A program made the position numbers and the translations under genes. Under the pieces are notes generated by a model, which was not told where the DNA came from, made no database searches, and saw only the letters and a list, made by a program, of their open reading frames with translations. From an uncultured Desulfobacterales bacterium (GTDB lineage Bacteria > Desulfobacterota > Desulfobacteria > Desulfobacterales > CAJINA01): DNA of 64,000 nucleotides. Below are positions 2,563-19,178 of the stretch, one piece after another; the first letter of the stretch is position 1; the number at the start of each line of letters is the position of its first letter. The stretch is from positions 25,831 to 89,830 of the forward strand of contig CAZYGG010000006.1 of assembly GCA_964647585.1 (NCBI GenBank). The letters are read 5' to 3'.

Positions 2563-2647
2563 ATATCAACCCTGCGATATTCAGTTAATTGAGTTCTGTA
2601 TTTTTCGGTATCCTTAAACCCACAGGAATTACTCTCGGGGCAAAACC

Positions 2648-3538
2648 CTACTCGCTTACCATTTCATCTATCAATTCCCGGACGGCAGGTACGCTCGAAA
2701 TCAAACCGGAAACCTCTCCAGCCGGTAATACGCCCGCCTCAAGGTCTCCTTTGAGCCAGGACGCTTCAACTGCCTCATTCGTGAAAACCTGATCTTTATT
2801 TTCCGTTCCCTGGATCAGGCCTTCAGCCAGTTTTGTCTGCAGCGCCCTGATACGGAATCGTCCCAGATCTATAAGACTGGTCCCCGTTTCGAGTGATTCA
2901 ACGATCGTGTTCTTAAAATTATTGTGGGCGATACACTCCTTGGTGGCAATAAACCGCGTCCCAATCTGTACACCCTGAGCGCCCAGAGCGAAGGCGGCTT
3001 TGTATCCACGCGAATCGCCGATTCCTCCGGCTGCGATAACCGGTATCTTTACCCGATCGGCAACCGCCGGGACCAGAACCAGGGTAGAAGCCCCTTTGAA
3101 TCCCTGCATCTCACCCGACTCAGACCCTTCGGCCACAATTGCATCGGCTCCAAGCGCTTCGGCTTTTTGGGCAACGTCAGCCGTAGGGACGACAACCAGC
3201 GCTTTCATGTTCTTTTCATGGAGCATCGGGACGATCTTCTTGGGTGAACCGCCTGAGACGGTGACAGCTCGGACCCCTTCACCGGCTAAAATCTCGATTA
3301 TATCCGGTACCAGTGGATTCATTGCAAAAATGTTTGCACCGAAAGGTTTGCCGGTCAGCTTTTTGGTTTCCTGGATCTGGCCGCGCAACACATCCACATT
3401 CTGTAAAAATGCTGTAGCCAGCAGACCGTATCCACCCGCCTCGGAGACAGCCGCCACCAGCTTCGGGTTACAGATAACACCCATGGCACCGAGAATAACT
3501 GGGTGCTGACAACCTAAGATTTTTGTCACTGGATTCAT
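2648..3538 (-). CDS. Nitronate monooxygenase / FabK-like FMN oxidoreductase (NMO family)
   Basis: ILGAMGVI, GADAIVAEGSESGE, IPVIAAGGIGD and GAQGVQIGTRF are classic NMO TIM-barrel motifs. Confidence 0.8.
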   Translation of the reverse strand: MNPVTKILGCQHPVILGAMGVICNPKLVAAVSEAGGYGLLATAFLQNVDVLRGQIQETKKLTGKPFGANIFAMNPLVPDIIEILAGEGVRAVTVSGGSPKKIVPMLHEKNMKALVVVPTADVAQKAEALGADAIVAEGSESGEMQGFKGASTLVLVPAVADRVKIPVIAAGGIGDSRGYKAAFALGAQGVQIGTRFIATKECIAHNNFKNTIVESLETGTSLIDLGRFRIRALQTKLAEGLIQGTENKDQVFTNEAVEASWLKGDLEAGVLPAGEVSGLISSVPAVRELIDEMVSE

Positions 3539-3733
3539 CGGAAGTCCTCCTTATGTTCGTGCGGATTTACAAAAAAATGGGTAATGGATATTCAGGCTTC
3601 ATCTCATCCCTAAATATCAGGGCTCCTGGCCCCAGATATAATCAAATACAGCAAGTTCAGCAATGGGGTGGTTGCTTAACGATATGTATTTTGCACGGAG
3701 GTCAGGAGCCCTGTATACACAGTGGACTTAAAA

Positions 3734-4249
3734 TTACGCCAGGACCTCTCTTGCACACGCTTTGGCGGCGGCCACATCTTCTTCGTTGGGACGCCCGGTC
3801 ATCGCTTTGACCATATCCGCCCACTGGTCGTCAGGCATACCCAGCTTCTTTTGTACGGCGGCGTGCATGGCCTCTGCTAAATACCCCTGGCAGTCAAAAC
3901 AGCCCACGTATTCAATCCCTTTTGCCTGGCAGGCTGTTTTTATCGGGTCTGCAAATGCTTCCATGTCCTGTTCCGGGTAGGCCGGGGCCATGTGGGTGAT
4001 GAAGCCGGCCATTTTCTGGCCAGTGCTTTCCTGAATTACACCTAAACACTCCTTTACCGGCGCTGCCAGGCTGCCGGAGTGCAGGGGGGAGCCGATGAAA
4101 ACGACATCGTACCCCGCCACACCTTCGGGCGTGATATCCTCAAGCTTTTTACAATCTGCTTCATTCGCCTGGGATGCTTCCTCGTAAATGGCCTTTGCAA
4201 TTTTTTCCGTGTTTCCGCTCTGACTGTAATACGTTACCAATACTTTCAT
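3734..4249 (-). CDS. Flavodoxin-family protein
   Basis: The N-terminus MKVLVTYYSQSGNTEKIAKAI is the flavodoxin FMN phosphate-binding loop. Length is 171 aa. Confidence 0.8.
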   Translation of the reverse strand: MKVLVTYYSQSGNTEKIAKAIYEEASQANEADCKKLEDITPEGVAGYDVVFIGSPLHSGSLAAPVKECLGVIQESTGQKMAGFITHMAPAYPEQDMEAFADPIKTACQAKGIEYVGCFDCQGYLAEAMHAAVQKKLGMPDDQWADMVKAMTGRPNEEDVAAAKACAREVLA

Positions 4250-4315
4250 GATGTTTCCTCCTTGAATTAAGTTACGTTCAATACCAAATGTTTATAATGG
4301 TAAATGATATGATAC

Positions 4316-4987
4316 CTATCCCTGTATTTCGATTACTTCCTGAACCAATTCAACTAAACTTGTTTTATTAATATCCGGCTGAAGGTAGTATGGGTTGAAT
4401 ATTTCCTCTTTACGTTTAATATAGGCTGTTTTAAGGCCGGCTTTTTTGGCACCGAACAGATCCCAGTCGTGAGTAGCAACCATAACAACCTCAGCCGGTG
4501 ATAGATTTTCTTCTCGCGCTACATGCAGGTAGATATCTTTAAACGGTTTATATTTTTTTACGGAATCTACTGAGTAGTAGGCGTGGAACAGATCGATGAT
4601 ACCTGAATTGGTAAGCTGCTCTTTTATCATTTCCAATGACGAGTTTGATACGGCGATCGTTCTGGTGTTATTGTGCCTGAGGATTTTGAGTGCTTCAGCA
4701 ACATCATCGTATGCAGGCATTTTCCTGAAAGAGCCCAGGATTTCGGCTTTAGTTTCTTCCGATAATTGTTTGCCGCTTTCATAAAATATGTTTTCCAGGA
4801 CAACCCCTGCCAGTTCACCAAAGTTTTTATATTCATCCATAATGCCGGTTACCGTTGATGTATGCAGCAATTTGGTAAACCAGTACTTCATGGCATGACC
4901 GTCGCCAAAACTATTTTGGAAACTCTTTTTAAGGGCACCCAGGTCAAGCAGCGTTTCGTTCATGTCAAAGAAAACGGCTTTTATCAT
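4316..4987 (-). CDS. HAD-superfamily hydrolase, type II 2-haloacid dehalogenase-like
   Basis: Contains FFDMNETLLD (DxxxT-type motif I), SNS, KPFKDIY and HDWDLFGAKKAG (motif IV). Confidence 0.8.
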   Translation of the reverse strand: MIKAVFFDMNETLLDLGALKKSFQNSFGDGHAMKYWFTKLLHTSTVTGIMDEYKNFGELAGVVLENIFYESGKQLSEETKAEILGSFRKMPAYDDVAEALKILRHNNTRTIAVSNSSLEMIKEQLTNSGIIDLFHAYYSVDSVKKYKPFKDIYLHVAREENLSPAEVVMVATHDWDLFGAKKAGLKTAYIKRKEEIFNPYYLQPDINKTSLVELVQEVIEIQG

Positions 4988-5029
4988 TTTAGTTCTCCTT
5001 TTAATTAAAGGCTCTTACTGCATGTGCTA

Positions 5030-5668
5030 TCATTCAGCTATCTTGCCGGCAATCTCCCGTCCCAATGCTTTAGCTTGCTCCCAGGTTTCCGACTGGTCCT
5101 CAACCCGGGCGTATCCAATTTCGGAACATTTTGCGTCCGGGCCATAATACTTCTGGACACCACTCGCTTCACACTCATCACCGTTTTCACAAAACACACA
5201 GGGCACGGTCCCCTGGATGGTCAATTGCCCCATAAGCTCCATGCGCTCAACGGCCCTCATCTCGTATGCCAGGGAGGCATTAACGGCCTTCAACACTACG
5301 GGATTCAGGCCCGACAAAACAGTAGCGCACAATTTGCCTTCAAGCAGGTTGTTTTGATGATGAAAAGACCAGAATCGCTCAAGAAGAGCCTTGGTAAATC
5401 CGTCGATCTGGCTGTAAGGGGTATAGGCTCCGATAATCAATGCGGAGGCGCTTTTGATTTTTTTGGCCAGTTCCTGGAAATCGTCCTTCGCTTTGCAGAT
5501 GTTGTCCGGAGCGCATTTTTTACAAGCAAAACATGGCCTGACATTGATTCGACTGAGTTTTACAAATTCCGTTTCCAGCCCGCTGGATTCTAAAGTGACT
5601 TTAATTAGTCGATCGGTATTACTGTTTTTAATTGGGCTACCCGAAATTCCGATTAGTTGAGGTTGCAT
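5030..5668 (-). CDS. Iron-sulfur flavoprotein (Isf-like NADPH-dependent FMN reductase fold)
   Basis: Contains GISGSPIKNSNT plus the compact Cys cluster CFACKKCAPDNIC characteristic of Isf-type proteins. Confidence 0.75.
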   Translation of the reverse strand: MQPQLIGISGSPIKNSNTDRLIKVTLESSGLETEFVKLSRINVRPCFACKKCAPDNICKAKDDFQELAKKIKSASALIIGAYTPYSQIDGFTKALLERFWSFHHQNNLLEGKLCATVLSGLNPVVLKAVNASLAYEMRAVERMELMGQLTIQGTVPCVFCENGDECEASGVQKYYGPDAKCSEIGYARVEDQSETWEQAKALGREIAGKIAE

Positions 5669-5712
5669 GATTTTCGTTCATCTCCTCTCTCCGGGGTTGT
5701 TGATCCCCTGGT

Positions 5713-6012
5713 CTATAGGACCTTGTGGCAAAGTTTATTGCTACACTGCCAAATTGAATGATCGATATACCCGAATTCGGAAAAAGCACTGGCCAATTGC
5801 AGGCCCAGTCCGCTTTTGTCGTTCGAAGGCACCGCACCGTTCCAGTTGATCAGGATGCTCAGTTCGTTCTCAAGGTTCGGGCTTTTAAGCAATTCGATTT
5901 CCCGAAGGCTCTCATCCGGTGACGGTGCAGAAAGTTGTTCAAAAGCCCTCTCGGCACTGTCCCTGTCCCGGCCGGTGAACGATTTAAGTTGTATGATCTC
6001 TATCCAGTTCAT
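5713..6012 (-). CDS. Conserved 99-aa hypothetical protein, paralog of 12574..12873
   Basis: The start at MNWIEIIQL is preceded by GAGGTGAAA. It is about 78% identical to the second copy, with mostly conservative replacements. I do not recognise the family. Confidence 0.6.
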   Translation of the reverse strand: MNWIEIIQLKSFTGRDRDSAERAFEQLSAPSPDESLREIELLKSPNLENELSILINWNGAVPSNDKSGLGLQLASAFSEFGYIDHSIWQCSNKLCHKVL

Positions 6013-6060
6013 TTTCACCTCATTATGTTTTCGATCAATCATGGCAGTCACCTCTGTGAC

Positions 6061-6423
6061 TTATAGGCTCTTTATAAGGGATGCCTGCAACACCAGGGGT
6101 TCATCTCCAACCGGTTTTACCGAATGCTCCAGGCCACTCTTGGTATTTATGACATCACCCGGATTAATTTCGTACGCCTGTCCTTCAGTCGTGTGAAGCC
6201 CCTTACCGGACAAAACCACATAAAGTTCCTCCGCACCCTTATGCACATGCTCACCGACAGAAGCATCTGCGGGTATTGTCATCCGCATACTGGACAGCAC
6301 TCTACTGCCTTCTTGTGTAGGGACTCCCCCAAAACCGATTGCAGCCCGAAGTTCGATTGTTCCTTCACCTTTATAAAAATGATCTTTCTTCATAACCTTT
6401 TGTTCGTCTACAGTGATGTGCAT
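6061..6423 (-). CDS. Cupin-domain protein
   Basis: 120 aa with GEHVHKGAEELYVVLSG ... GDVINTKSGLEHSV, the two cupin motifs with His ligands. Confidence 0.75.
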   Translation of the reverse strand: MHITVDEQKVMKKDHFYKGEGTIELRAAIGFGGVPTQEGSRVLSSMRMTIPADASVGEHVHKGAEELYVVLSGKGLHTTEGQAYEINPGDVINTKSGLEHSVKPVGDEPLVLQASLIKSL

Positions 6424-6491
6424 GACTATCCTCCAGTTAATTTACGATTAATAATAGAACGCTGTATTTGAAAACTGTCTTTATAAAGCGG

Positions 6492-7010
6492 TTACCAGGC
6501 CTCACGTTCCAGGCGCTGGTATAAAAATGCCTTTTCACTTTCCGTTATGTCGTCGGCATTGTCATTGACCCATCGCACATCACCCGATGCGATGGCGGCT
6601 TTGGCTTCACTGGAAAGCTTGAATTGTGACAATGCTGCAGAACCGTTCTCAAGGAGTTCGAGCCGAAAGTCCGGATTATCGATGGCCTTCTTCAACACCT
6701 TTTTGACGATCTGGCCCTGGTCAGCATTTGTATCCGTAGAGGCGTTCTCTTCAATTGCTGAAGTGACAGTTTCTTCGACATGGGCCGTCACTTCATTATC
6801 GAAGATCGTTCTAACCTGATCGCTCGACACAGGATGTTTATAAAATTCAGGGACAAAAAGAACACCTAGGACAGAGCTTATTTCATCGACGTTACTGCCG
6901 GCTTCAACATGGGCGATGTCCTTCTTAATTCCAAGTTTATCTAAATTCAGGTGCAACCCGGGATTAAACCGAGTAGAAGCAGTATCGCTATATTCTTTTA
7001 TTTTAATCAT
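6492..7010 (-). CDS. Hypothetical protein with LigA / NHLP-like C-terminal helical domain
   Basis: The C-terminus AIDNPDFRLELLENGSAALSQFKLSSEAKAAIASGD resembles the LigA-subunit/NHLP-leader helical repeat. I chose the start at MIKIKEY (GGAG 6 nt upstream). Upstream in-frame starts fall at or before the predicted sigma-54 transcription start. Confidence 0.5.
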   Translation of the reverse strand: MIKIKEYSDTASTRFNPGLHLNLDKLGIKKDIAHVEAGSNVDEISSVLGVLFVPEFYKHPVSSDQVRTIFDNEVTAHVEETVTSAIEENASTDTNADQGQIVKKVLKKAIDNPDFRLELLENGSAALSQFKLSSEAKAAIASGDVRWVNDNADDITESEKAFLYQRLEREAW

Positions 7011-7080
7011 GGTCATCTCCTCTATTTTGAGATTGTCAGAGCTATGTCTCATTTTTTTATTCATCATAACAATCACTACA

Positions 7081-7096
7081 GCGAATTGCGTGCCAA
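7081..7096 (-). promoter_or_regulatory. Sigma-54 (-24/-12) promoter of operon A
   Basis: The minus strand reads TTGGCACGCAATTCGC, with GG and GC exactly 12 nt apart (consensus TGGCAC-N5-TTGC). It lies about 60 nt upstream of the first ATG. Confidence 0.7.
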
Positions 7097-7445: not shown

Positions 7446-7835
7446 TTAAATGTGGGCAATACATTTTATTTCAATCTTCAATTCGGGAAGTATCAAAGCA
7501 GCAACCTGCACTAATGTTTGACTAACTTCCGGCAAGCCGCCATAGGCTTCGGCTCGTGATTCAAATATTGTTTCAGCGTTAGCCAAAATTTCGTTTACAT
7601 CAGTTACGAACCAGGTTTCGTCTACAACATTTTTCATTGTTGCGCCAAATTCGGAAAGGACCTTTCGAATGTTCGCATAAGCGAGCTTGGCCTGTTCCGT
7701 TACGTCGGCTCCAGGGTTGCCTGCCTCGTCGATGCCCACCTGGCCGGCAAGATATATAATGTTGTCAGTCTGTACACCTTGCGCGAAGATACTTTTGTAT
7801 GGGCCGGTACGATACGATTTTTTTTCGATACTCAT
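7446..7835 (-). CDS. ridA: RidA/YjgF/TdcF-family reactive intermediate (enamine/imine) deaminase
   Basis: 129 aa with YLAGQVGID and a C-terminal ...ELKIEIKCIAHI. AGGAGA RBS precedes the start. Confidence 0.85.
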   Translation of the reverse strand: MSIEKKSYRTGPYKSIFAQGVQTDNIIYLAGQVGIDEAGNPGADVTEQAKLAYANIRKVLSEFGATMKNVVDETWFVTDVNEILANAETIFESRAEAYGGLPEVSQTLVQVAALILPELKIEIKCIAHI

Positions 7836-7871
7836 AGTATTGTCTCCTATCAGGGTTTGGACTGCGATTTA

Positions 7872-8675
7872 CTAACCATGCGTTGCCGTCAACTTTTTAA
7901 ACATATTGGCCAACCCTGTAGTGAGGCCATAAATGTTTTCAATTGGCAGGTTTTTGTCAGCCGTGGTATCGAAAAAAAGATTCAAATCCGATTCCAGACC
8001 GTCCTCGGGATTATTGTAGCAGATGAGTATGGGCAAACGCGGCAGCGGTTTGATGATCAGGGCGATATCTGCGGCATAATGATTTTGGACCTGTTCCCCG
8101 TTGAAAAGCTCAATGATATTTTCAAAAAAATTGGGACTTGAGTCTGCAACTTTTTTAAGAAGTTTAACGGATTGATGTTCAAAAAAACGGGACCAATCCT
8201 TGGCAGTCTCAAGTTCCCGGAACGGTACCCAGGTTTCAGTCAGTGCCAGGCCTTTGCATGACAGAATATAATTGAACACAGGGGGTGTAATCCAGCGATT
8301 CACATGAATATCGGTAGAAACCTCACCATTTGCGTCAACGCTGAAATCTTTCCCCATGATTTTCAAGGTAAGTCGGCCCTTTGAAAATTTTCCGCCCAGC
8401 ACACCAGCTCTGGACTCAAGGTCTGTCTGCTTTATATTTTCTTTTAATTGGTTTATTGCTTTGAGATAATCCTGCTCGAACGGAGATTCTTTTTTTTCGT
8501 TTTTATCACCGTAGGTGTTAAGGGTGTCTTGATCAATATACGGGCATTCGCTTAAAGAAACCTGGCCCTGAAATACCGCTGCGGCAAATGCAAGGCAAGT
8601 CGGCTTGTTGCATTTGCGGCAATTTGTTTTTGGCAATAATTTGAATACATCCATGGCGTTGTTGAATTTTGCCAT
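7872..8675 (-). CDS. DUF3786-like protein with N-terminal CFeSP-gamma-type Fe-S domain
   Basis: The N-terminus NAMDVFKLLPKTNCRKCNKPTCLAFAAAVFQG...CPY matches the 'putative Fe-S cluster' domain of the CODH/ACS gamma subunit. I chose the start at MAKFNN; the ORF could extend to 8720. Confidence 0.65.
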   Translation of the reverse strand: MAKFNNAMDVFKLLPKTNCRKCNKPTCLAFAAAVFQGQVSLSECPYIDQDTLNTYGDKNEKKESPFEQDYLKAINQLKENIKQTDLESRAGVLGGKFSKGRLTLKIMGKDFSVDANGEVSTDIHVNRWITPPVFNYILSCKGLALTETWVPFRELETAKDWSRFFEHQSVKLLKKVADSSPNFFENIIELFNGEQVQNHYAADIALIIKPLPRLPILICYNNPEDGLESDLNLFFDTTADKNLPIENIYGLTTGLANMFKKLTATHG

Positions 8676-8784
8676 ATCACTAAGGTCCTTTTTTTTATTA
8701 ACTCCCCTTTCGGGTTTCATGAAAGCTTAGGTTAAATATCGGTATCGGCTGAAACCCGAAAGCAGAGTCCCAAACCTATAAGAT

Positions 8785-9381
8785 TCAGGCAAGCAGGATG
8801 AGGCCGGCTACCCAGCTATTGGCGTCCTTATCCATTGAATCCGGTTTTTCCGCTTTTTGTGCCGCCCATCCGGAAGAGAGCATCAACCGGGTGGCATCGA
8901 TGCCAAAACCCGACATGGACGGGCGGGCGACCTCTATGTGGCGGCAGGGTTTATTTTCCGCCACGACACAGCATTCTTCCTCATCGTTACAAAACAGCTC
9001 TTTACACGAGCCGCCGGCGAACGCTTTTGATTTCTCAAATCCTGCCTCGACGGCTTTTTGCTCCACACCGGCCACAACCTGATGAAGCAGCTGCATAACT
9101 CCTTTGCGTTCATCAGAAAACATGACCGATGTCGGAAGTTCTATTTTTACGGTAATGGAATATCCACTCTGCGCCTGCCACCTTCTGAATGCTGCCGGGC
9201 CCCCCACATGTGGCGGGCAGCTTGCACCAAGGCCATAATTCGGACAGGTATATTCCCCGTTACATAAAGCGGCTAAATTATCTTCAACCTGAATTTCACT
9301 GGAAAATATGCTTGCAGAAGAAGTCGCCCCGAGTCTTCTGGCTTCTTGAATCAACTCTTCAAGCTGCTGTTTCGATACCAC
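8785..9381 (-). CDS. DUF2284-like predicted metal-binding protein
   Basis: Contains CPNYGLGASCPP and the Cys-rich SCKELFCNDEEECCVVAENKPCRH. Confidence 0.65.
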   Translation of the reverse strand: MVSKQQLEELIQEARRLGATSSASIFSSEIQVEDNLAALCNGEYTCPNYGLGASCPPHVGGPAAFRRWQAQSGYSITVKIELPTSVMFSDERKGVMQLLHQVVAGVEQKAVEAGFEKSKAFAGGSCKELFCNDEEECCVVAENKPCRHIEVARPSMSGFGIDATRLMLSSGWAAQKAEKPDSMDKDANSWVAGLILLA

Positions 9382-9395
9382 CTTATTTTCCTTTT

Positions 9396-9752
9396 CTAAT
9401 CGTTTGACTCTGGTGCCAGCATATTGAGGGTGTCTACGAACAGTGTCACCATGGGGCCAAAGGCCAGGCTCCCGCCCATCAAAAGCCCCACTGCGGCCGT
9501 CTCAATGAGTTCCTGGCGGGTGGCGCCGGCCTGAACAGCCTGTGAAGTGCGCGACGCAATGCAGTATTCACCGCCATTAGCGACGCCAATGGCAACACAC
9601 ATCAATGCCTTGGTTTTCTCGTCAATAGCCCCAGGTTTGAGTGCTGTTTGGTTTAAATTTAAAAACGCCTTCATGGTCTCTTTATCGACCTTTGAAAAAC
9701 CTTTGAGCGAGTTTTGCAGCTTTTCCAGAAAAGCCTTTGTATCTTCTGCCAT
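9396..9752 (-). CDS. Carboxymuconolactone decarboxylase (AhpD-like) family protein
   Basis: 118 aa with KTKALMCVAIGVANGGEYCIASRT in the AhpD-fold core. The CxxC motif is degenerate, with a single Cys. Confidence 0.75.
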   Translation of the reverse strand: MAEDTKAFLEKLQNSLKGFSKVDKETMKAFLNLNQTALKPGAIDEKTKALMCVAIGVANGGEYCIASRTSQAVQAGATRQELIETAAVGLLMGGSLAFGPMVTLFVDTLNMLAPESND

Positions 9753-9790
9753 GGTATCCTCCTTCGAATTTTGGGGTTAAAAATACCTTG

Positions 9791-10360
9791 CTATCGTAGC
9801 AGTTCAATCAGATTGGACCTGAAACAATCAAGGCTTATCGGCTGTATTTCAATTGGTACCTGGATCAGGTCGTAAAACTCGAGTATTTCTTCTTCGGATA
9901 GGGGGTTGATGCCTGTATCCATCAACAAAAACCGATCGTAAAAACCGAATTTTTGACGAATGTCCACTTCATCATACCCTGCCGCATCCAGCATATTAGC
10001 TGAAGCACGGATCCAACCGGGTGTAATCAACATTGTGCGGTTTTGTTCTAATTTATCAACGCTTTCTTGACAGAAAGCTTCCACACAGTTTTTGGCCCCA
10101 AGAATTTTTCCGCCGTGACGATTGACGATATCGCACATATCCGGATGACAGCCATTACCAAATAGAAATTTCACCTCTGCCCCTTCTGCCGCCACGTCTT
10201 CCAGGGTCTGTTTCAGGGTCGCTTCAAGTTTATCCAGATCCCAATGCAAGCCGGCATCCAGCCAGGTAACGTCAATATCTTTGTATTCTTCCGGCAAAAC
10301 GGCAAAAAGCTCATTGGCGAAAACCTGGCAACCAATCATTTTTATCTTGTTTGAGGTCAT
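9791..10360 (-). CDS. DUF1638-domain protein (copy 1)
   Basis: Reads MTSNKIKMIGCQVFANEL...WLDAGLHWDLDKL...FGNGCHPDM. It is a paralog of 11979..12542. AAGGA RBS precedes the chosen ATG. Confidence 0.7.
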   Translation of the reverse strand: MTSNKIKMIGCQVFANELFAVLPEEYKDIDVTWLDAGLHWDLDKLEATLKQTLEDVAAEGAEVKFLFGNGCHPDMCDIVNRHGGKILGAKNCVEAFCQESVDKLEQNRTMLITPGWIRASANMLDAAGYDEVDIRQKFGFYDRFLLMDTGINPLSEEEILEFYDLIQVPIEIQPISLDCFRSNLIELLR

Positions 10361-10381
10361 CTCTTTTCCTTCCAAAGGCAT

Positions 10382-11269
10382 TCAAGTTTTCTGACTGGCG
10401 ACAAAAGAATCCCAGGTTGTTTCTCCGTAGGTTGAGCGTTTCCATTTATAAGGCAAGTCCACCAGGATCCCGGGTTGCCTGGCCGTCTGCAGCAGCAACA
10501 GCAGTTCACGCAAGATGGTCATCTGCTGAAGGCGATTGTCAGGCTCCCCAAACGAGGCCCCGTGCGGAAACTTAACAAACGCAGCTCTTGGTGCCAAAAG
10601 TTTCTCCGATATCTGGCGGTTAATAGAAAGCGAGACTGTGGGGATACCGCTTGCCTCGATAACGCGAGAGATCAGGCCGCCGGCCCGATTGCAAAGCGGT
10701 CAGGCCGGAACCATAAGGACGCAATCAACTTTATCCTCTTTAAGTTTTTGGACGAGCTGGCGAGCACTCCCATCAGGCTCTCCAATAAACTCTTGAACCA
10801 AATCACCCCCGAAGCCAAAGCTGTAAAAATTGGGTGAAAGCCTTCCTATAACCTTGGCTTCAGCAAGTTCGCTGAGGCGATCAATAGGGAAAAGCACATT
10901 GATATCCTGTTTCACGCGGGCATGGGCATAGTGGGTATGGGCAATTTTCAGCTTTTCTCTGGCAACATCCGAGGGAATGGTGCGAAAGCTGGCATCTCCC
11001 CGCGCGCTGTCAACATCAAAGGGTTCATCGTCTTCAAGATAAAATCCAGCTGTGCTGACAATAGCCAGGCAGCTTTCTGACAGAGGCTTTTCAAACTGTG
11101 CCCAGGGGATATCATCATTATTGGTGGATACGGCCTGACTTGCCAGCCAGTTGACCTGTTGGCCTATGGCATGACTGATTGAAGAACCGATTCTGGTATT
11201 AAGAAAACAACCTATTCCCCGCCAAAATTTTACTGTTTTAAATAAATCCATGAAAATTCCCTTTATCAT
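10382..11269 (-). CDS. PrdB/GrdB-family (glycine/sarcosine/betaine/D-proline reductase component B) selenoprotein; in-frame UGA (Sec) at 10700..10702
   Basis: ORFs 10700..11287 and 10382..10597 are in the same frame and separated only by TGA plus open codons. Read-through gives VDCVLMVPA-U-PLCNRAGGLISRVIEASGIPTVSL, a UxxC motif in the position of Sec in PrdB/GrdB. The start is ambiguous (11287, 11269 or 11251). Confidence 0.75.
10671..10689 (-). other. Candidate bacterial SECIS hairpin
   Basis: The mRNA reads UGA-CCGCUUUGCA-AUCGGGCC-GGC-GGCCUGAU. This gives an 8-bp stem (one G.U pair) starting 11 nt after the UGA. Confidence 0.4.
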
Positions 11270-11970
11270 ACCCCTAATTTTTGGCACAAACCTTCAAAAT
11301 CCTCGACTTCGATGTCGAAATTGGTCTCGCTCGGGGATTCGAAGCCTTGATCCATGTTGTCTTCCTCCGGAACGCTGACTAACGCCGTATGTAAACCCGC
11401 AGACCGGGCTGCCGCCAGGTCCCCATCATGGGCCGCGACCATCATGGAGTCAGTCGGTTTCAGGCCCAAAAGGCGGGTCGCTTTCAGGTAGGCCTGCAAA
11501 GAAGGTTTATAATAGCCGAGGAATTCGCAGGACAGGATGCCGTCCCATTGCACCCCGGCCCTTTTCGAGCTGCTTACTATGCTCTCCCAACTCAGGATCG
11601 TGAGCACGACGACCGTGTAGCGATTCCGCAAACGGGTAATCGCTTCGGGTGCGCCGGCAAAGACATTGAGATGATGCCAGGTCGATCTGATGAGGGCCGC
11701 GTTGTCAATAGACTTTAAGATCGGATAATCGGCAGCCATCTTTTCCAGAGCCCGCAGGTGCATGTCATCCGAATTTATCCAGGGGAGATTGCCCTGCCTC
11801 ACCTGGGTATGAATTTTGAACATTTCTCCCCGCCAGTCATTGGCAAAGGCTTCACTGTCTATAGACTCACTGTTTTGATCTGCCAATTTCTGGATGTTCT
11901 CGCGGGCGGTGTTCTTCCAGTCGAACACGGTCCCGCCGACGTCAAAAAATAGTCCCTTAACGTTTTCCAT
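11266..11970 (-). CDS. HAD-superfamily hydrolase, haloacid dehalogenase type II-like (second copy in locus)
   Basis: Contains FFDVGGTVFDW (motif I), YKPSLQAY and AAHDGDLAAARSAG (motif IV). AGGAGG RBS precedes the start, and the stop overlaps an ATG of the next gene (ATGA). Confidence 0.75.
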   Translation of the reverse strand: MENVKGLFFDVGGTVFDWKNTARENIQKLADQNSESIDSEAFANDWRGEMFKIHTQVRQGNLPWINSDDMHLRALEKMAADYPILKSIDNAALIRSTWHHLNVFAGAPEAITRLRNRYTVVVLTILSWESIVSSSKRAGVQWDGILSCEFLGYYKPSLQAYLKATRLLGLKPTDSMMVAAHDGDLAAARSAGLHTALVSVPEEDNMDQGFESPSETNFDIEVEDFEGLCQKLGV

Positions 11971-11978
11971 ATTACCTC

Positions 11979-12542
11979 CTATTGAAGCACATCAGTCAGC
12001 TTTGCCTTAAAATGATCAAGGCTTATTGATTTTATCTCAACCGGCACCTGTGTCCGATCAAAAAACTCAAGTATTTCTTCTGCGGACAAAGGGTTAACGC
12101 CCGTATCCAATAACAGAAATCGATTAAAACGGCCAAATCTCTGTCGAATGTCCACTTCATCCCAACCCGCCGCCTCCATTTGGCGGGAAAAATGACGGAC
12201 CCAGCCGGGCATTACAACCATGGTACGGTCTTTCCCCAGTTCATCATAACTTTCCGGGCACATAACTTCGACGCTGTTGTTAATCCCGAGAATTTTCCCG
12301 CCCTGGCTGCTGACGATATCACGCATATCCGGGTGGACGCCATTGGCAAAAAGAAATATCGCATCGGCCCCTTCTGTCGCGGAATCTTTTAAGCCCTGTT
12401 TTAAAGTTGTTTCCATTGCATCTCTATTCCAGTGCAGCCCGGCATCAAGCCAAGTAATATCGATATCTTTATAGGCATCCGGTAAAACAGTAGGAAGTTC
12501 ATCTTTGAAAATTTGGCAAGCCATTATTTTTTTCTTGGTCAT
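11979..12542 (-). CDS. DUF1638-domain protein (copy 2)
   Basis: Reads MTKKKIMACQIFKDEL...WLDAGLHWNRDAM...FANGVHPDM. GGAGG lies 8 nt upstream of the chosen ATG. The longer tracked ORF (to 12698) runs through the upstream gene and is rejected. Confidence 0.7.
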   Translation of the reverse strand: MTKKKIMACQIFKDELPTVLPDAYKDIDITWLDAGLHWNRDAMETTLKQGLKDSATEGADAIFLFANGVHPDMRDIVSSQGGKILGINNSVEVMCPESYDELGKDRTMVVMPGWVRHFSRQMEAAGWDEVDIRQRFGRFNRFLLLDTGVNPLSAEEILEFFDRTQVPVEIKSISLDHFKAKLTDVLQ

Positions 12543-12573
12543 CGTGATATCCTCCCCTTCAAGGCTTATGATT

Positions 12574-12873
12574 TTATAAGATCTTATGGGAAAGCCTATT
12601 GCTACGCTGCCAGACGGAGTGATCAATGTACCCGAACTCGGAAAACGCACTGGCCAGCTGCAGGCCCAGTCCGCTTTTGCCGTTGGGAGGCACATCACCG
12701 CCCCAGTTAATCAGGATGCTCAGTTCGTTTTCCAGATTTGGACTATTGAACAAGTCAATTTCCCGGAGGGTGGCATCCGATAAAGGTGCAGAAAGCTGTT
12801 CAAACGCGGCCACGGCGCTATCTTTGTCCTGACCCGTAAATGATTTAAGTTGTATAATTTCAATCCAGTCCAT
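12574..12873 (-). CDS. Conserved 99-aa hypothetical protein, paralog of 5713..6012; first gene of operon B
   Basis: The start at MDWIEIIQL follows a GAGGT RBS. It lies directly downstream of the sigma-54 promoter. Confidence 0.6.
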   Translation of the reverse strand: MDWIEIIQLKSFTGQDKDSAVAAFEQLSAPLSDATLREIDLFNSPNLENELSILINWGGDVPPNGKSGLGLQLASAFSEFGYIDHSVWQRSNRLSHKIL

Positions 12874-12916: not shown

Positions 12917-12932
12917 GCGAAATGCATGCCAA
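12917..12932 (-). promoter_or_regulatory. Sigma-54 (-24/-12) promoter of operon B
   Basis: The minus strand reads TTGGCATGCATTTCGC, with GG-N10-GC spacing correct. It lies about 45 nt upstream of the ATG at 12873. Confidence 0.7.
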
Positions 12933-13100: not shown

Positions 13101-14666
13101 ATGAAAATAGATGAAAACGAATTTTTCCGGCAGGTGACCCTTCGGATCTTCAGCAGTCTTGATATCAAAACTGCGATGAAAAACTGCATGAATTATCTGC
13201 AGCAATTCATCCCCATCTCCGGCATGTACTTTCTTCTGTACGATCCCGAAATGAATGTGGGTCACATGCTGGCCACCATCTTTCCCGGGGATATACCGAG
13301 CCCTGACCCAACAATCTCTTTTCCGGAAAAGCACTGGGATGAGTTGAAAGAGAGATTTAATGAAGCGTCACAGGTAAGAGTTTTCAATGACCGTCGTGAT
13401 GAACCTGAATTCATACGGGAGGCGATAACCCAAGTATTTGGCGCGGAGACTTCCCTGATGGAGATGCATTTACATTTGGAAGGCGAAAGGCTCGGCCAGT
13501 TTGGAATAGTTACGGAAGGCCAGCATAGCTACTCCGAGTTGCATGTTCATCTCGTCTCCTTGCTACATGAACCTTTTGCGGTGGCCATATCCAATATCTT
13601 GCAGCACCAGGAAATTCAGAGGCTCAATCAAATTCTATCCGATGACAATCGTTACCTGCACAGGGAAATGATGCATTTGACCGGGGATACGATCATCGGT
13701 GCCAAGTTCGGGCTCAAGGAAGTCATGCGCATGGTGGAACATGTGGCGCCGACCGAAAGCCACGTGATGATCATGGGTGAAACCGGCACCGGCAAGGAGG
13801 TGATTGCCAACGCCATCCACTTCTCATCGAGGCGCAAGGGCACGCCTTTTATCAAAGTGAACTGCGGGGCGATACCCGACAATTTGATCGACAGCGAACT
13901 GTTCGGACACGAAAAAGGCGCCTTTACCGGCGCCATTTCGAGAAAAAGAGGACGCTTTGAAAGGGCACATAACGGAACGATCTTTCTTGACGAGATTGGG
14001 GAACTACCCCTGCAGGCCCAGGTAAGACTCCTTCGGGTTCTGCAGCAACATGAAATCGAACGGGTCGGCGGTTCCGAAACGATTCCGGTGGATGTACGCA
14101 TTATCGCCGCAACCCACAAGAATCTGGAAGAGATGGTGCGTATCGGGCAATTTCGAGAGGATTTGTGGTTTCGGCTTAATGTGTTCCCGATTATGATCCC
14201 CCCATTACGTCAGCGGGCCATTGATATACCAGCGCTGGTAGACTATTTTCTCGAACAGAAATCCAAGGATTTGAAGATTCGCAAACGGCCTTCCCTGGCA
14301 CCGGGTGCTATTGATAAATTGCAAACCTATAATTGGCCCGGGAATGTACGCGAGCTGCAAAACCTTGTGGAACGAACGCTTATTCTCAACCAGATGATGG
14401 ATGACGGAAGCCAGTTGTCATTCGATCCACTGCCGGCTGGTTCGACTCCCGCGGAGAATATCGTTTTAGAAAAAGAAGATGACGGGATCATTCGTCCCTT
14501 GGATGAAGTCATGGCCAACCATATTCAAAAGGCCCTGGATAAGGCGAACGGCAAGGTGGAAGGCAAAGATGGCGCTGCAAGTATGCTCGGGATTAACCCG
14601 GGGACCTTGCGGGGGAGGATGAAGAAACTGAAGATTGCATACGGACGCGGTGCACATAAAAAGTAA
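13101..14666 (+). CDS. Sigma-54-dependent transcriptional activator, GAF-like sensor + AAA+ + Fis-type HTH
   Basis: Contains GETGTGKE (Walker A), ESELFGHEKGAFTGA (GAFTGA loop), FLDEIGEL, WPGNVRELQN and a C-terminal HTH (AASMLGINPGTLRGRMKKL). Confidence 0.9.
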   Translation: MKIDENEFFRQVTLRIFSSLDIKTAMKNCMNYLQQFIPISGMYFLLYDPEMNVGHMLATIFPGDIPSPDPTISFPEKHWDELKERFNEASQVRVFNDRRDEPEFIREAITQVFGAETSLMEMHLHLEGERLGQFGIVTEGQHSYSELHVHLVSLLHEPFAVAISNILQHQEIQRLNQILSDDNRYLHREMMHLTGDTIIGAKFGLKEVMRMVEHVAPTESHVMIMGETGTGKEVIANAIHFSSRRKGTPFIKVNCGAIPDNLIDSELFGHEKGAFTGAISRKRGRFERAHNGTIFLDEIGELPLQAQVRLLRVLQQHEIERVGGSETIPVDVRIIAATHKNLEEMVRIGQFREDLWFRLNVFPIMIPPLRQRAIDIPALVDYFLEQKSKDLKIRKRPSLAPGAIDKLQTYNWPGNVRELQNLVERTLILNQMMDDGSQLSFDPLPAGSTPAENIVLEKEDDGIIRPLDEVMANHIQKALDKANGKVEGKDGAASMLGINPGTLRGRMKKLKIAYGRGAHKK

Positions 14667-14917: not shown

Positions 14918-17900
14918 TCACGCATTGGATGCCTGTCTTACCCGTTTCCCCGCCTTTGCCCGGGGGTATTTCAAATAGGGCACGATGGCATCATTTTTGT
15001 TCCCGCCGGTGCCGTCGTATGTGATGGATACGATGGGGACCCCTGTTTTCCGTTCGATCCGGCCCGCCATGGCCTCGGTCACCAGGGAAGGACAGCAGAA
15101 GGCCGGGATGGTCTGGACGAACAGGGAGATGTCCGGGTATTGTTCCAGAAGATAGGAGATTTTCAAGACACTCTCGATGGATTCCCCTGTGTTTTCGCTG
15201 CGGATGTCGTATTGTCGAAAGATTTCTTCCGGGGATCCGGTATAGTCCGGTTCGGGGTCCGTAAGGATCCGGGAAAAAGCTTTGGTATAGGTTTTTTCCA
15301 TCTGGTGGGCTGTGACCAAAAGGGCCTTGGTGGAAAGGACGTTTAAGTAAAGGCCCTCTCTGAACCATTTTTTGAGATAGGGATTGGCGATCATCCTGAG
15401 ATAGGAGCTGTACGGGGTCACCACGGCTTCCCCACCGTTTTCCTCGATGAAGCGAACAAGATTATCATTCATCATCTCGTTGTCCCTGACATAGAGGTCT
15501 CCGAAAATTGCGACTTTCGGACGCCGAACGAATCCGGGCTGCTGTTCGATAGCCTCGAACAGGGTGATGACTTCCGCCAGGGCCGAGTCCTTGGAACGCT
15601 TGCCGCTGAAGGCATGACTCAGTATGTTGATACTCTCTTCGATCACCGCATCGGTCTGCCCCTTGATAGTTTCATAGGGCCGGATCCGGCAGCCCATCTT
15701 GCGGATGAGACCGCCGAACATATATGAAAAATAGACATTGATGGGTACCTTCATGGACAGATCGAGGAAGGAGAGGCTCCCGCCATAGACACCGACTTTT
15801 TCCATGCCCTGGCCGTAGTCGCTTAAAATGCTCCGGATATGATGGGGAAACAAGGCCAGGTTGCAGGCAATGGAGGATTCTGCATTCCACAGGACGGTCT
15901 TGGCCGGATCGAGGTCATGGTTCTGGATATAGTCGATGCATTGCTGAGCGATGATGTTCAAGGGGATGCACTGCCCCGTGTTTCGCCGCAGGCCTTTGGC
16001 CGTCGTATCTTCGCTTTCTTCCAGGAGCCGGACATCGAGGCCTTCCCGTTGCAATGCGGCGGTGGTCAACCGGAGCGTCAGGGGATCCCAGTTGGGCAGA
16101 AGCAGGGTGTGGCCGTCAATCTGGCGTTCCCTTTTGGGGATCAGGGCCGGCACAAGACTCGGGGCGGCTGATGTGCGCGCCCCGGCATAATGGTTTTGAA
16201 AAGCCCTGACCGCCGCTTCGATCCGGGTTTCATAACCCACGCTGGAATCGTGATCGTCGAGCTGGAGAATCAGGTAGGGCTTTTTGTGGGATTCTATAAT
16301 TTTTTTGAAGTATTCCGCCACAAAGGAATCGGGTGTACATTTAAAAGAGGTGATGAATACCGGATAGGCCCCCGGTGTTTGGGCCGCCGCATGGGCAGCC
16401 GAAAGTATTTTGGCGGCATAATGCCAGTGTATTTCAGTCAACAAAGGGGCCAGGGAGCGGTCCGTTTCGGATGGATCGGGAAGCTGGTCCTGGAAAAAGG
16501 CCTTGATGCCCAGGGTCCCGAAAATTTCCGGAATGCGTTTGTTCATATCGGAGCTCAGGACGGTGTAGGGGCGACCCAGGAGGATGACATGGAGTTCATC
16601 CCGGACGACTTTTTTGTGGTAGATTTTTTTCAGTTCTTTCCGGCCTGCAGACATGAATTCCGTGGCCGCATCATAGGCGGATGAAATATCGAAAAACCCG
16701 ACCTTTTCCGGAAGGATGGATTTCAAGAGCCGCCAGAGTTCCATTTTGATATGGAAACTGCTGTAAAGATACCTGGCCAGGGGCATGAGCAGTCGCTGGC
16801 GGTCGTTTTCCGGGATTACTGCGGAAACAACCGTGGGCGAAAACTGCGTATAATAACAATACTGGCGCCGGCCCTCCTCTTCTGTCTTCTGTTCCAGGTA
16901 AAAGGGCAAAAAGACGAAGTCCGCCTTTTCCATCAGATGGGCCACATGGCCGTGCAACGCGGACATGGGGGCACAAAATTCAGCACCGGCCATGTGTTTT
17001 CCGAGTTTGACGGCTGCTTTGACACGTTCGCTCGTGATGGTGGGAATGGAAAGGGCGTGGAAAAAATGTTTCCAGAACGGCAAGTCCGCGTGCATATGGA
17101 GCGCCGCCGGAAGACCGATGGTGACGGGGCCGCCCTCACTTTCGGGGGCGGGCGTCTTGAAAACCCGTTTTCTCGTTTTGATCAGGTCGACCCCGGACCG
17201 GTTATTGTTGACATAGCCGCCGGTGTCATAATCCCTTCCGCACAGAAATCCGTAGGCCACTTTTACCCGATCCACAGCGGCCACCGTAATTTTGCAATGG
17301 TTGGTGCAAAGCTGGCAGACTTCCGAAGTGATGGGAATTTTTTGTTCATACAGGCCGATCCCCTTGAAGGTCGTCTTTAAGGCAGGCTCATCCGCCAGTG
17401 ACAACGCTGCCCCTATGGCCCCGGTGAGATGACAGAATTCAGAGACATGGATGGGCTTTTGGAGCCGTTGTTCGAAAGCGGCGACAAGGGCCCTGTTTTT
17501 CGCTGTGGCCCCCTGGAAAAAGACCGCATCTCCGATGTGATGCTCGGTGGCCACCTTGGTCAGATAATTTTCCACGATGGAATGGAGCACCGAGGCCAGG
17601 GCATCGTCGATATCATACCCTTCGCTGAGCAAATGATTGATATCCCGTTCCATGAATACCGTGCACCGGTCGCTGGATACCGGCGCTCTGCGGTTTTCGG
17701 TCCGCACGGAATATTCGGCCAGCGGACAACCCAGTTTGCGGGCCTGTTCCTCGATAAAACTCCCGGTTCCCGCGGCGCAAACCGTATTCATGGTGGAAAA
17801 TGTGACCCGGCCGTCTTTCAAGGTGGTGAATTTCGAGTCCTGTCCCCCGATTTCAATGATTGTATCCACCTTGGGATCGATTTGAACGGCCGCCCGGGCA

Positions 17901-19120
17901 TGGGCCGTGATCTCATCGAGGACAAGATCAGCCCCGATGATTTTTCCCACGAATTTTCGCCCCGATCCGGTGGTTGCGGCCCCTGATATTGAAAGGGTGG
18001 CGTTGTTTTCCACAAGGGTGGTGTGGATGGCAGCCAGGATTTTCTGGAGTGCCTCGACCGGGCGTCCGGCCGTCCGGGTATAGAATCCGGCCAGTACTTT
18101 CCCGGATGTGCCCAACAGCACGGCCTTGGTGCTGGTGGAACCGATATCGACCCCCAAAAAAGCCTCTTTAGCGGAATCTTGCAAGGGCTCATAAATGTCA
18201 ATCTCCACATCATCGTGCAATTGACTCGAGACGGATTCAAAAACCGGGTAGCGCGATTGCTTCAGGGCCAGGGGTGGATAGAACCATTTTTTTGCGACGC
18301 GTTTGGCCCGGATGATTTCATCCGCCGACCGGATGTGGATCCGGTCCTTTATCAACAGCTCATCCAGAAGATTCAAGGCGGCCCCGGCCGCACCGTAATG
18401 GGATGTTTCGGTGACGATGTTCTGATCGACAAGGGCCTGGATATGCCGGACCACAGCCCTGTTTTTCGATACCCCCCCGGCAAAGAGAATGGGCCCGGCC
18501 ACGGCTTCCCCGTCGAAGAGTGTATCCACGATATTTTTGGCCAGCCCCAGGCAGAGGCCATCACAGATCTGGGCCAAGGAATAGCCCTCTTGCTGGGCGT
18601 GGATCAGATCCGTTTTTGCGAAAACCGCACACCGGGATGCAATTTTCGGGATTGGGTCTGAATTTTCAAAGGCAATCCGGCTTAATTCTTCGATCCCGGA
18701 AAGCCCGAGCCTCCCCGCCTGCTGGTCGAGAAAGCTGCCCGTGCCCGCCGCGCATGAAGTGTTGGACTTGAAAGCCAGATAATTACCCGCCGCATCGAAA
18801 CGAATCAGGCCGAACTTTTCCCCCCCCACGAAAAGGATGCCGCCGATGGCCTCATGGTTGGCATGGGCCGCTTTCATGATGGCGATCCGGTTGTCGTAGC
18901 GGCGATTTACTTTTAAAACGGGAGGGGTGGATGTGGTGGTGGCGATACCGCAAATTCCGGGCAGATCGAAATCCCCAAGAAGGGTCCTGACTGTCCGGGT
19001 GATGTTTCCATGGTGGAAGGCATAGGCCGTGTTGACCGTCTGTTTTTCCGGTGTGACTTCCACCATGGAAACGGATACAGAACCAATATCGATACCGAGG
19101 ACATTCGAATGAAGGATCAC
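14918..19120 (-). CDS. Acyl-CoA dehydratase activase-related fusion protein (two BcrAD/BadFG-type ATPase modules + large C-terminal DUF2229-like region)
   Basis: It has two actin-fold ATPase repeats (LGIDIGSVSV...; LGVDIGSTSTKAV...) each followed by CAAGTGSF. Total length is about 1400 aa. I prefer the GTG at 19120 because of the AAGGA RBS; the tracked TTG start is at 19159. Confidence 0.85.
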   Translation of the reverse strand: MILHSNVLGIDIGSVSVSMVEVTPEKQTVNTAYAFHHGNITRTVRTLLGDFDLPGICGIATTTSTPPVLKVNRRYDNRIAIMKAAHANHEAIGGILFVGGEKFGLIRFDAAGNYLAFKSNTSCAAGTGSFLDQQAGRLGLSGIEELSRIAFENSDPIPKIASRCAVFAKTDLIHAQQEGYSLAQICDGLCLGLAKNIVDTLFDGEAVAGPILFAGGVSKNRAVVRHIQALVDQNIVTETSHYGAAGAALNLLDELLIKDRIHIRSADEIIRAKRVAKKWFYPPLALKQSRYPVFESVSSQLHDDVEIDIYEPLQDSAKEAFLGVDIGSTSTKAVLLGTSGKVLAGFYTRTAGRPVEALQKILAAIHTTLVENNATLSISGAATTGSGRKFVGKIIGADLVLDEITAHARAAVQIDPKVDTIIEIGGQDSKFTTLKDGRVTFSTMNTVCAAGTGSFIEEQARKLGCPLAEYSVRTENRRAPVSSDRCTVFMERDINHLLSEGYDIDDALASVLHSIVENYLTKVATEHHIGDAVFFQGATAKNRALVAAFEQRLQKPIHVSEFCHLTGAIGAALSLADEPALKTTFKGIGLYEQKIPITSEVCQLCTNHCKITVAAVDRVKVAYGFLCGRDYDTGGYVNNNRSGVDLIKTRKRVFKTPAPESEGGPVTIGLPAALHMHADLPFWKHFFHALSIPTITSERVKAAVKLGKHMAGAEFCAPMSALHGHVAHLMEKADFVFLPFYLEQKTEEEGRRQYCYYTQFSPTVVSAVIPENDRQRLLMPLARYLYSSFHIKMELWRLLKSILPEKVGFFDISSAYDAATEFMSAGRKELKKIYHKKVVRDELHVILLGRPYTVLSSDMNKRIPEIFGTLGIKAFFQDQLPDPSETDRSLAPLLTEIHWHYAAKILSAAHAAAQTPGAYPVFITSFKCTPDSFVAEYFKKIIESHKKPYLILQLDDHDSSVGYETRIEAAVRAFQNHYAGARTSAAPSLVPALIPKRERQIDGHTLLLPNWDPLTLRLTTAALQREGLDVRLLEESEDTTAKGLRRNTGQCIPLNIIAQQCIDYIQNHDLDPAKTVLWNAESSIACNLALFPHHIRSILSDYGQGMEKVGVYGGSLSFLDLSMKVPINVYFSYMFGGLIRKMGCRIRPYETIKGQTDAVIEESINILSHAFSGKRSKDSALAEVITLFEAIEQQPGFVRRPKVAIFGDLYVRDNEMMNDNLVRFIEENGGEAVVTPYSSYLRMIANPYLKKWFREGLYLNVLSTKALLVTAHQMEKTYTKAFSRILTDPEPDYTGSPEEIFRQYDIRSENTGESIESVLKISYLLEQYPDISLFVQTIPAFCCPSLVTEAMAGRIERKTGVPIVSITYDGTGGNKNDAIVPYLKYPRAKAGKRVRQASNA

Positions 19121-19178
19121 AGAATTTTTCCTTAAAATAACGCAAATACCGCGCCGCAATTATCGGTTGATTCGCCTT

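Follow-up and report, generated by a model that had tools for sequence, protein, structure and literature searches.

A PrdB-like selenoprotein gene predicted from two open reading frames joined across an in-frame UGA codon in an uncultured Desulfobacterales bacterium

D-proline reductase depends on three proteins co-encoded with prdB, namely PrdA, its pyruvoyl subunit, PrdH, a maturation factor, and PrdC, an electron carrier, and the PrdB subunit of Clostridioides difficile carries selenocysteine (Sec, U) at residue 151, the U151C variant being inactive (PMC11229817). In the selenoproteome surveys of Zhang, Gladyshev and colleagues, 'proline reductase PrdB' is the name of a family defined by PF07355 homology together with a Sec-containing UxxC motif (PMC2398784 Table 2, PMC1088965 Table 3). 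Under this name, 42 sequences were reported from the Sargasso Sea (PMC1088965), 235 Sec and 110 Cys forms from the Global Ocean Sampling survey, where it was among the most abundant selenoprotein families of ocean metagenomes (PMC2398784), five copies from the Olavius delta1 deltaproteobacterial symbiont (PMC1976440), and further members from Anaeromyxobacter and Geobacter uraniumreducens (PMC1794560). In the present study we analysed a 64,000-nt stretch of DNA from an uncultured Desulfobacterales bacterium (contig CAZYGG010000006.1 of assembly GCA_964647585.1, positions 25,831 to 89,830; hereafter the window), in which an earlier note, made from the letters of the sequence, had recognized two minus-strand open reading frames (ORFs) as one selenoprotein of the PrdB/GrdB family with an in-frame UGA in a U-x-x-C motif.

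With PF07355 homology and a Sec-containing UxxC motif, the predicted window protein belongs to 'PrdB' as the surveys define it. The survey family likewise has more Sec than Cys forms; it is also known from non-clostridial marine, soil and sediment bacteria, Deltaproteobacteria among them, and it was classed with homologues of thiol-based oxidoreductases, all members being lumped as 'PrdB' with no separation of true Prd subunits from stand-alone homologues. Compared with that family, the subclade of the window protein is longer (289 aa, with an extra N-terminus of ~45 residues and the sequence UPLCNRAGG), and the window gene lies in an unusual DUF1638/DUF2284/DUF3786 cluster. The finding of a split selenoprotein gene is correct but is not new biology, as the family is known from metagenome surveys. 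What the present analysis adds is that the curated PrdB and selenoprotein-B cutoffs are not reached, that no PrdA is found next to the gene, that the database entries found for this subclade are fragments only and that the gene cluster is distinctive.

On the minus strand of the window, ORF 11287..10700 has TGA 10702..10700 as its terminal codon. Coordinates and translation confirmed that ORF 10597..10382 shares its frame, that all 34 intervening codons are open and that past this TGA the frame remains open for 105 further codons, up to TGA 10384..10382. Translation across the UGA gives ...KLKEDKVDCVLMVPA-U-PLCNRAGGLISRVIEASGIPTVSLSINRQ..., with VDCVLMVPA as the residues before U, exactly the read-through peptide quoted in the earlier note. 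The length of 295–301 aa assumed there has to be revised: the most likely start codon is ATG 11251 (MDLFK...), giving 289 residues with Sec184, because the close homologues all begin with MDLFK or MDLLK, AAGGGA is present at 11263..11258, and the upstream haloacid dehalogenase (HAD)-type gene has its stop at 11268..11266. The gene and its parts are as follows.

11251..10382, minus strand: complete PrdB-like selenoprotein gene as predicted, with start ATG 11251, Sec-UGA 10702..10700 and true stop TGA 10384..10382; 289 residues, U184
11258..11263, minus strand: Shine–Dalgarno-like AAGGGA, 6 nt 5' of ATG 11251, read from the sequence
10700..10702, minus strand: in-frame TGA predicted to encode selenocysteine, residue 184; of 58 resolved loci, 56 have TGA here and two have TGC
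10691..10702, minus strand: putative U-P-L-C redox motif (U184 and C187); U-P-x-C-[NST] is kept in all loci
10671..10689, minus strand: core of the predicted bacterial Sec insertion sequence (SECIS) hairpin, 8-bp stem AUCGGGCC/GGCCUGAU and apical loop GGC
10385..10699, minus strand: C-terminal 105 codons, conserved in frame in all homologues, which annotations usually either omit or list as a 'hypothetical protein' in its own right

The two separately annotated ORFs, the conserved Sec codon, the SECIS hairpin and the family placement together very probably represent a single PrdB-like selenoprotein gene. Among 5.8 billion proteins searched, 65 relatives of the N-terminal part were found, all of which end at ~183 or 160 aa (183 aa for the close homologues), and the C-terminal part was found in the databases only as 'hypothetical' fragments of 59–115 aa, as expected from the earlier suggestion that automatic callers would split the gene. 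Homologues consistently ending at this position had been named in advance as evidence against recoding; this is true of the database proteins but not of the DNA. In the DNA of loci L001, L003, L005 and L007, the stop is a TGA at the identical column, and beyond it the frame continues through ~90–105 conserved residues with the signature U-P-x-C-N...G-I-[PA]-T-V...P-R-x-x-F...F-P-x-G. The database proteins ending at the UGA are thus evidently a gene-calling artefact, the DNA continuing in frame with what reads as conserved protein.

A genome scan with one genome per species gave 61 loci, of which 58 were readable at the UGA column and three were unresolved, from approximately eight phyla (Desulfobacterota, Acidobacteriota/Thermoanaerobaculia, Verrucomicrobiota, Planctomycetota, Myxococcota, Neomarinimicrobiota, Gemmatimonadales and Gammaproteobacteria). 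The codon was TGA in 56 of the 58 and TGC (Cys) in the other two, L044 and L057. Since one of the scan patterns had been back-translated with a Cys codon, any sampling bias would have favoured Cys forms. A second protein search, seeded with a Cys form, found at least 1,238 relatives, and the 120 of these that were listed included ~25 full-length Cys proteins, the remainder being mostly 160-aa truncations. Sec or Cys therefore aligns with the UGA in homologues, as the proposal of a recoded UGA in a U-x-x-C motif demands. Among the database N-terminal matches and C-terminal fragments, no Cys form was found for the 289-aa subclade, every database entry found for this subclade being a fragment. 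When the 75 codons after the UGA were compared with those of L009, the differences were distributed 11/3/40 over the three codon positions (37 codons with synonymous changes only and nine non-synonymous codons), and in the closest relatives the constraint on these 75 codons was at least as strong as that on the 75 codons before the UGA. Judged by this substitution pattern, the C-terminal extension is evidently under purifying selection as a protein.

The 8-bp hairpin that the earlier note had described just downstream of the UGA is indeed present at 10671..10689 (AUCGGGCC-GGC-GGCCUGAU); 10 nt separate its first base from the UGA, and the UGA-to-loop spacing is 18 nt. A 2026 review gives as criteria for bacterial SECIS elements a loop of 3–9 nt with G in the first two loop positions, an upper stem of 4–16 bp, a UGA-to-loop distance of 16–37 nt and a minimum free energy (MFE) of −7.5 kcal/mol or lower (PMC13188914). 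All four were found in the window hairpin (8 bp, GGC, 18 nt, MFE −14.6 kcal/mol, of which the core alone gives −11.1), and 58 of 60 Sec forms passed them, compared with neither of the two Cys forms, in which the core hairpin had an MFE of only −0.8 and −1.6 kcal/mol despite similar encoded residues (N-Q-T-A/V-C/A-L). In an ungapped alignment of 59 Sec forms, 88.2% of the paired cells could pair, compared with 20–42% when the 3' partners were slid, and loop position G22 was invariant. Compensatory changes were seen for pair 15–31 (C-G in 37 sequences, U-A in 12) and pair 19–27 (A-U in 31, G-C in 24); altogether six hairpin pairs had changed on both sides, and the observed score was reached by none of 500 shuffles. 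Set against the reading frame of the alignment, column 15 falls on a synonymous third position (Asn) and varies together with column 31, the first base of an Ile/Val codon, and column 27, again a synonymous third base, tracks column 19, the first base of an Ala/Thr codon. Because synonymous third bases covary with partner bases that change amino acids, selection evidently acts on the RNA, and only where a UGA is present. These results support the identification of the hairpin as a bacterial SECIS element.

Three unusual database entries deserve mention here. P0102 (L078:1501-2253), a 'full-length' member, has a true GGA (Gly) codon at the Sec column together with a perfect SECIS hairpin (−13.8 kcal/mol), which suggests either that TGA changed to GGA only very recently or that the assembly is wrong here; the idea that its Gly was a TGA translated under genetic code 4 or 25 was rejected, the DNA codon really being GGA. 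Two other 'full-length' members, P0095 and P0103, have Trp at the Sec column.

We then consider the family to which the protein belongs. The PF07355 (GRDB) search proposed for the joined sequence gave 37.7 bits (gathering score 22), aligning residues 50–187 with profile positions 210–345 of 347. Both the match and the profile stop approximately three residues before the Sec (residue 190 in the numbering of that query), and it seems that mostly UGA-truncated sequences went into the PF07355 model. The lack of a domain annotation on the database C-terminal halves is partly due to the profile ending before the Sec. The best NCBIfam match was the PrdB equivalog TIGR04483 (E = 3.7e-45), covering model positions 19–236 (218 of 238) and, at residues 55–278 of the 295-aa query, spanning the U. 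The GrdB/F/H models matched with their C-terminal halves only (positions ~209–400), at 44–58 bits compared with cutoffs of 600–800. Thus, of the earlier assignment to the PrdB/GrdB family, membership of the superfamily stands, and membership of PrdB or GrdB proper does not, given the missed NCBIfam cutoffs described below and the absence of PrdA, GrdE and GrdA nearby. By its sequence, the protein is best described as a stand-alone PrdB-like UxxC selenoprotein, and not as PrdB or GrdB proper.

The window protein is homologous to PrdB of Clostridium sticklandii and C. difficile over nearly the whole of PrdB and similar to it in size (32 kDa compared with ~26 kDa), and it shares with PrdB a Sec-UGA with an in-frame SECIS and a UxxC motif. 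The window U corresponds to approximately position 150 of the PrdB model, near U151 of C. difficile, as estimated from the aligned ranges rather than from an alignment. In contrast with PrdB, PrdA, PrdH, PrdC, PrdD/E and proline racemase are missing nearby, the wider family has natural Cys forms whereas PrdB U151C is inactive, and the hosts, judged by taxonomy, are not Stickland fermenters. With GrdB, GrdF and GrdH (~430 aa) it has in common PF07355, homology to the C-terminal half and a Sec at the equivalent place; however, the N-terminal half of ~200 residues is missing, there is no UxxCxxC motif, and grdA, grdE, grdC and grdD are not found nearby. It also resembles the Prx-like, Trx-like and DsbA-like UxxC selenoproteins in having U-x-x-C at a strand-to-helix junction, frequent Sec/Cys interchange and a stand-alone gene, but differs from them in its fold and in its remote invariant charged residues.

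These residues, D79, R90, H105, D116, D124, R125, E199 and R222 in the homologue alignment, lie remote from the motif (UPLCNRAGG with its flank in the window) and suggest that the protein may have a defined substrate pocket rather than carrying out generic disulfide exchange. Structural information came from an AlphaFold model of the natural Cys homologue P0083, which is ~38% identical with the window protein, so that details may not transfer. In this model (predicted local distance difference test score 94.3, predicted template-modelling score 0.93), the U/C position lies in a loop leading from strand 154–158 to the N-terminus of helix 164–177. Such a placement is usual for a redox-active UxxC. 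No thioredoxin-fold Pfam match was found in the window protein.

As regards partner genes, none of the PrdA, GrdE, GrdA, PrdC and proline racemase families was found among the ~50 ORFs of the window by Pfam and NCBIfam scans, nor were prdH, prdD/E, prdF, grdC or grdD detected near the window gene in these scans. PrdA/GrdE, GrdA, PrdC and proline racemase were likewise not found in the annotated neighbourhoods of L001, L003, L005, L007, L070, L075, L076 and L077, and clustering of the neighbours at 62 loci gave no conserved partner gene. On these gene neighbourhoods the PrdB-like gene is, as far as can be judged, a stand-alone unit across phyla, and we infer that a PrdA partner is also absent from the rest of the host genome. 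In the 289-aa subclade, the neighbours are genes of redox or detoxification functions, among them Prx-like, AhpC-TSA family, AhpD, DJ-1/PfpI, rubrerythrin and DUF2284 genes.

Several results weigh against a stand-alone PrdB-like gene whose UGA is decoded as Sec. The TIGR04483 score of 154.2 bits is below the PrdB equivalog cutoff of 300, and that for TIGR01918, the selenoprotein B subfamily of glycine/betaine/sarcosine/D-proline reductase, is 53.8 bits compared with a cutoff of 65.45; other family members are below these cutoffs as well (123–149 and 37–50 bits respectively). Because the curated cutoffs are missed, the chemistry can be borrowed from PrdB and GrdB by analogy only. The P0083 model showed no likeness to a solved structure (best Foldseek E = 0.025, template-modelling score 0.34), and a sequence-profile search of the PDB gave no match. 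A stable hairpin after the UGA had been expected, and the MFE is well beyond the SECIS limit, though the 71-nt fold of the window sequence taken alone is not significantly more stable than its shuffles (z = −1.13); with the window fold by itself unexceptional, the case for UGA recoding must rest on comparative data. An Rfam search of the whole window gave no match at gathering thresholds, which says only that no curated family reached threshold, and a permissive Rfam scan of the SECIS region gave a single chance-level match. Neither selA, selB, selC or selD nor any tRNA gene lies within the 64-kb window, and a crude screen for UGA-split genes revealed no second evident selenoprotein gene there. 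Finally, a prdA gene may lie in another part of the genome.

We asked how far other explanations could account for the data. If the TGA were a real stop, the locus would contain two independent genes or a pseudogene with a nonsense mutation. Such a reading fits with the observations that all database proteins found end at the UGA codon, that some annotations have a separate ORF for the downstream piece and that the RNA fold of the window is not significant by itself. It is nevertheless exceedingly improbable, as 56 loci of approximately eight phyla have the TGA at the identical column and two more have TGC there, the 105 downstream codons keep the frame in every case and bear the marks of purifying selection, TTG 10597 is not a conserved start whereas the conserved protein begins right after the TGA, and the covarying hairpin goes together with the TGA. 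Equally hard to credit is that the UGA is read without a Sec system, by near-cognate insertion of Trp or Cys or under a code in which TGA is a sense codon, even though the 'full-length' database forms include two with Trp and one with Gly at the Sec column. TGA is a normal stop in the window, where it ends 13 of the 34 long ORFs, including the selenoprotein gene itself and its upstream neighbour, and therefore a reassigned genetic code is not the explanation. Moreover, the codon of the Gly form is truly GGA with the hairpin retained, the conserved downstream element fits the model of a SelB-type SECIS, and the natural substitute here is Cys, as is typical of Sec/Cys pairs.

A different question is whether the protein might be a genuine PrdB of D-proline reductase, or a GrdB-type subunit of glycine, sarcosine or betaine reductase, with its PrdA/GrdE partner encoded elsewhere in the genome. 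The top NCBIfam match is the PrdB equivalog over nearly the full model length, the Joint Genome Institute (JGI) names homologues 'D-proline reductase (dithiol) PrdB', a sigma-54 activator adjoins the cluster as PrdR does in Clostridioides (PMC11229817), and the lack of a detected Cys form in the 289-aa subclade recalls the inactive PrdB U151C. On the other hand, 154 bits is half of the cutoff of 300 and the selenoprotein-B subfamily cutoff is missed too; no PrdA/GrdE, PrdC, GrdA or proline racemase was seen in the 64 kb or around the eight homologues, whereas characterized prdA and prdB lie in one cluster (PMC11229817); and the activator resembles PrdR over generic domains only. For a GrdB-type subunit, the N-terminal half is absent, the match beginning only at model position ~209, and the motif is UPLCN compared with the UxxCxxC reported for GrdB. 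We regard a genuine PrdB or GrdB subunit as very unlikely, and retain the reading of a stand-alone PrdB-like selenoprotein.

How this selenoprotein would be made and work can be outlined by analogy. Decoding of Sec in the host would be SelB-dependent, on the basis of the established bacterial Sec pathway: once the UGA reaches the A site, the hairpin 10689..10671 would recruit SelB-GTP and Sec-tRNA(Sec) to the ribosome. Indirect support for Sec decoding comes from L009 and L010, which carry an adjacent UGA-containing Prx-like gene. The motif U184-P-L-C187, predicted to lie at the N-terminus of a helix, could be a redox centre cycling between selenol/thiol and selenenylsulfide. This would parallel authentic PrdB, in which the substrate is attacked by Sec, after which the enzyme returns to its reduced state. 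If the window protein behaves like PrdB/GrdB and other UxxC selenoproteins, U184 may serve as the nucleophile and C187 may resolve the intermediate to a selenenylsulfide, which would be re-reduced by a thiol or an Fe-S donor. D-proline is unlikely as the substrate because PrdA is absent nearby. We lean towards the view that the protein is a self-contained selenol-dependent reductase acting on a small substrate, a stand-alone redox enzyme rather than a D-proline reductase. A wider hypothesis is that stand-alone PrdB-like selenoproteins in general are the catalytic core of PrdA-independent selenol-dependent reductases rather than Stickland leftovers, and that here the protein works with the DUF1638 (two copies), FeS/DUF3786, DUF2284, AhpD-like, HAD-type and RidA products of its cluster in a sigma-54-induced pathway that cleaves a small molecule reductively, with electrons arriving via an Fe-S or corrinoid-related route. 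This is a speculative proposal, and we think it rather doubtful.

The Prx-like gene of the closest relatives, L009 and L010 (Desulfobacteraceae and delta-proteobacterial metagenome-assembled genomes), is of the AhpC-TSA type, lies directly upstream of the PrdB-like gene (L009:7343-7993, L010:7230-7904) and has an in-frame TGA with the motif W-U-P-Y-C; gene callers split it into pieces of 82 and 128 aa, and together the two make a pair of selenoprotein genes. In the window, the HAD and DUF1638 genes hold the place of the Prx-like gene, and the AhpD-like and DUF2284 genes of the window have no in-frame UGA.

For annotation, the consequences are practical. The window gene and hundreds of relatives are stored as a 'GRDB' fragment of 160–183 aa, sometimes accompanied by a 'hypothetical protein' of ~100 aa, and the database names imply D-proline or glycine reductase activity. 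Because the family scores below the cutoff of every curated NCBIfam model, pipelines neither join the halves nor flag the Sec. A dedicated model together with a SECIS profile would mend this. The non-clostridial 'PrdB' members that were examined have no PrdA nearby, and the window cluster provides a concrete context for testing the function of such proteins.

The selenoprotein gene belongs to a co-directional cluster, delineated with Pfam and NCBIfam scans, which is listed below in the direction of transcription together with the regulatory features at its upstream end.

7446..12873, minus strand: co-directional cluster containing the selenoprotein gene
13101..14666, plus strand: sigma-54-dependent activator, 521 aa, divergent (PF00158 at 241 bits, AAA_lid_14, HTH_8)
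12917..12931, minus strand: candidate sigma-54 −24/−12 element TGGCATGCATTTCGC, two mismatches with GG-N10-GC kept, 44–58 nt upstream of the first cluster ORF
12873..12574, minus strand: first ORF of the cluster, 99 aa (MDWIEIIQLKSFTGQDKDSAV...), no Pfam or NCBIfam match, called as a gene on L070–L072
12542..11979, minus strand: DUF1638
11970..11266, minus strand: HAD type II-like hydrolase
10360..9791, minus strand: DUF1638, second copy
9752..9396, minus strand: CMD/AhpD-like
9381..8785, minus strand: DUF2284
8675..7872, minus strand: FeS and DUF3786, with an N-terminal domain that resembles that of the acetyl-CoA synthase gamma subunit
7835..7446, minus strand: RidA

The order of these genes recurs on the independent metagenome contigs L070–L074. 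From their spacing and orientation only, we infer that they may be transcribed as one operon. The two DUF1638 genes, paralogues with similar N-termini (MTSNKIKMIGCQVFANELFAVLP compared with MTKKKIMACQIFKDELPTVLP), lie on either side of the HAD and selenoprotein pair; a genetic link between DUF1638 and B12-dependent methionine synthesis has been reported, with no function defined (PMC5764234).

The cluster is probably controlled by sigma-54. Across the window the sigma-54 pattern matched 61 times, no more than the 72 matches expected by chance, and the site at 12917..12931 is a weak candidate for a promoter element, although its position between the cluster and the divergent activator is suggestive. 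The activator at 13101..14666 matched the PrdR model at 329 bits, below its cutoff of 795, and only in the generic AAA+/HTH part. A second sigma-54-type match, TGGCACGCAATTCGC (7081-7095, minus strand), is located ~70–85 nt upstream of the ORF ending at 6492, and two further sigma-54 activators are encoded in the window, at 23104-24495 and 53635-55056.

Just past the sigma-54 activator lies an ORF of 1,413 aa (14918-19159, minus strand) with two BcrAD/BadFG ATPase domains and DUF2229, the layout of activases for 2-hydroxyacyl-CoA dehydratase or benzoyl-CoA reductase-type enzymes. On the 3' side of the cluster and on the same strand (1465-7076, minus), ORF 6492-7076 has a weak match to an NHLP-type leader and is accompanied by cupin, FMN reductase, second HAD hydrolase, flavodoxin, nitronate monooxygenase-like and MetE-like (Meth_synt_2) genes, the order of which is partly conserved on L070, through the nitronate monooxygenase-like gene.

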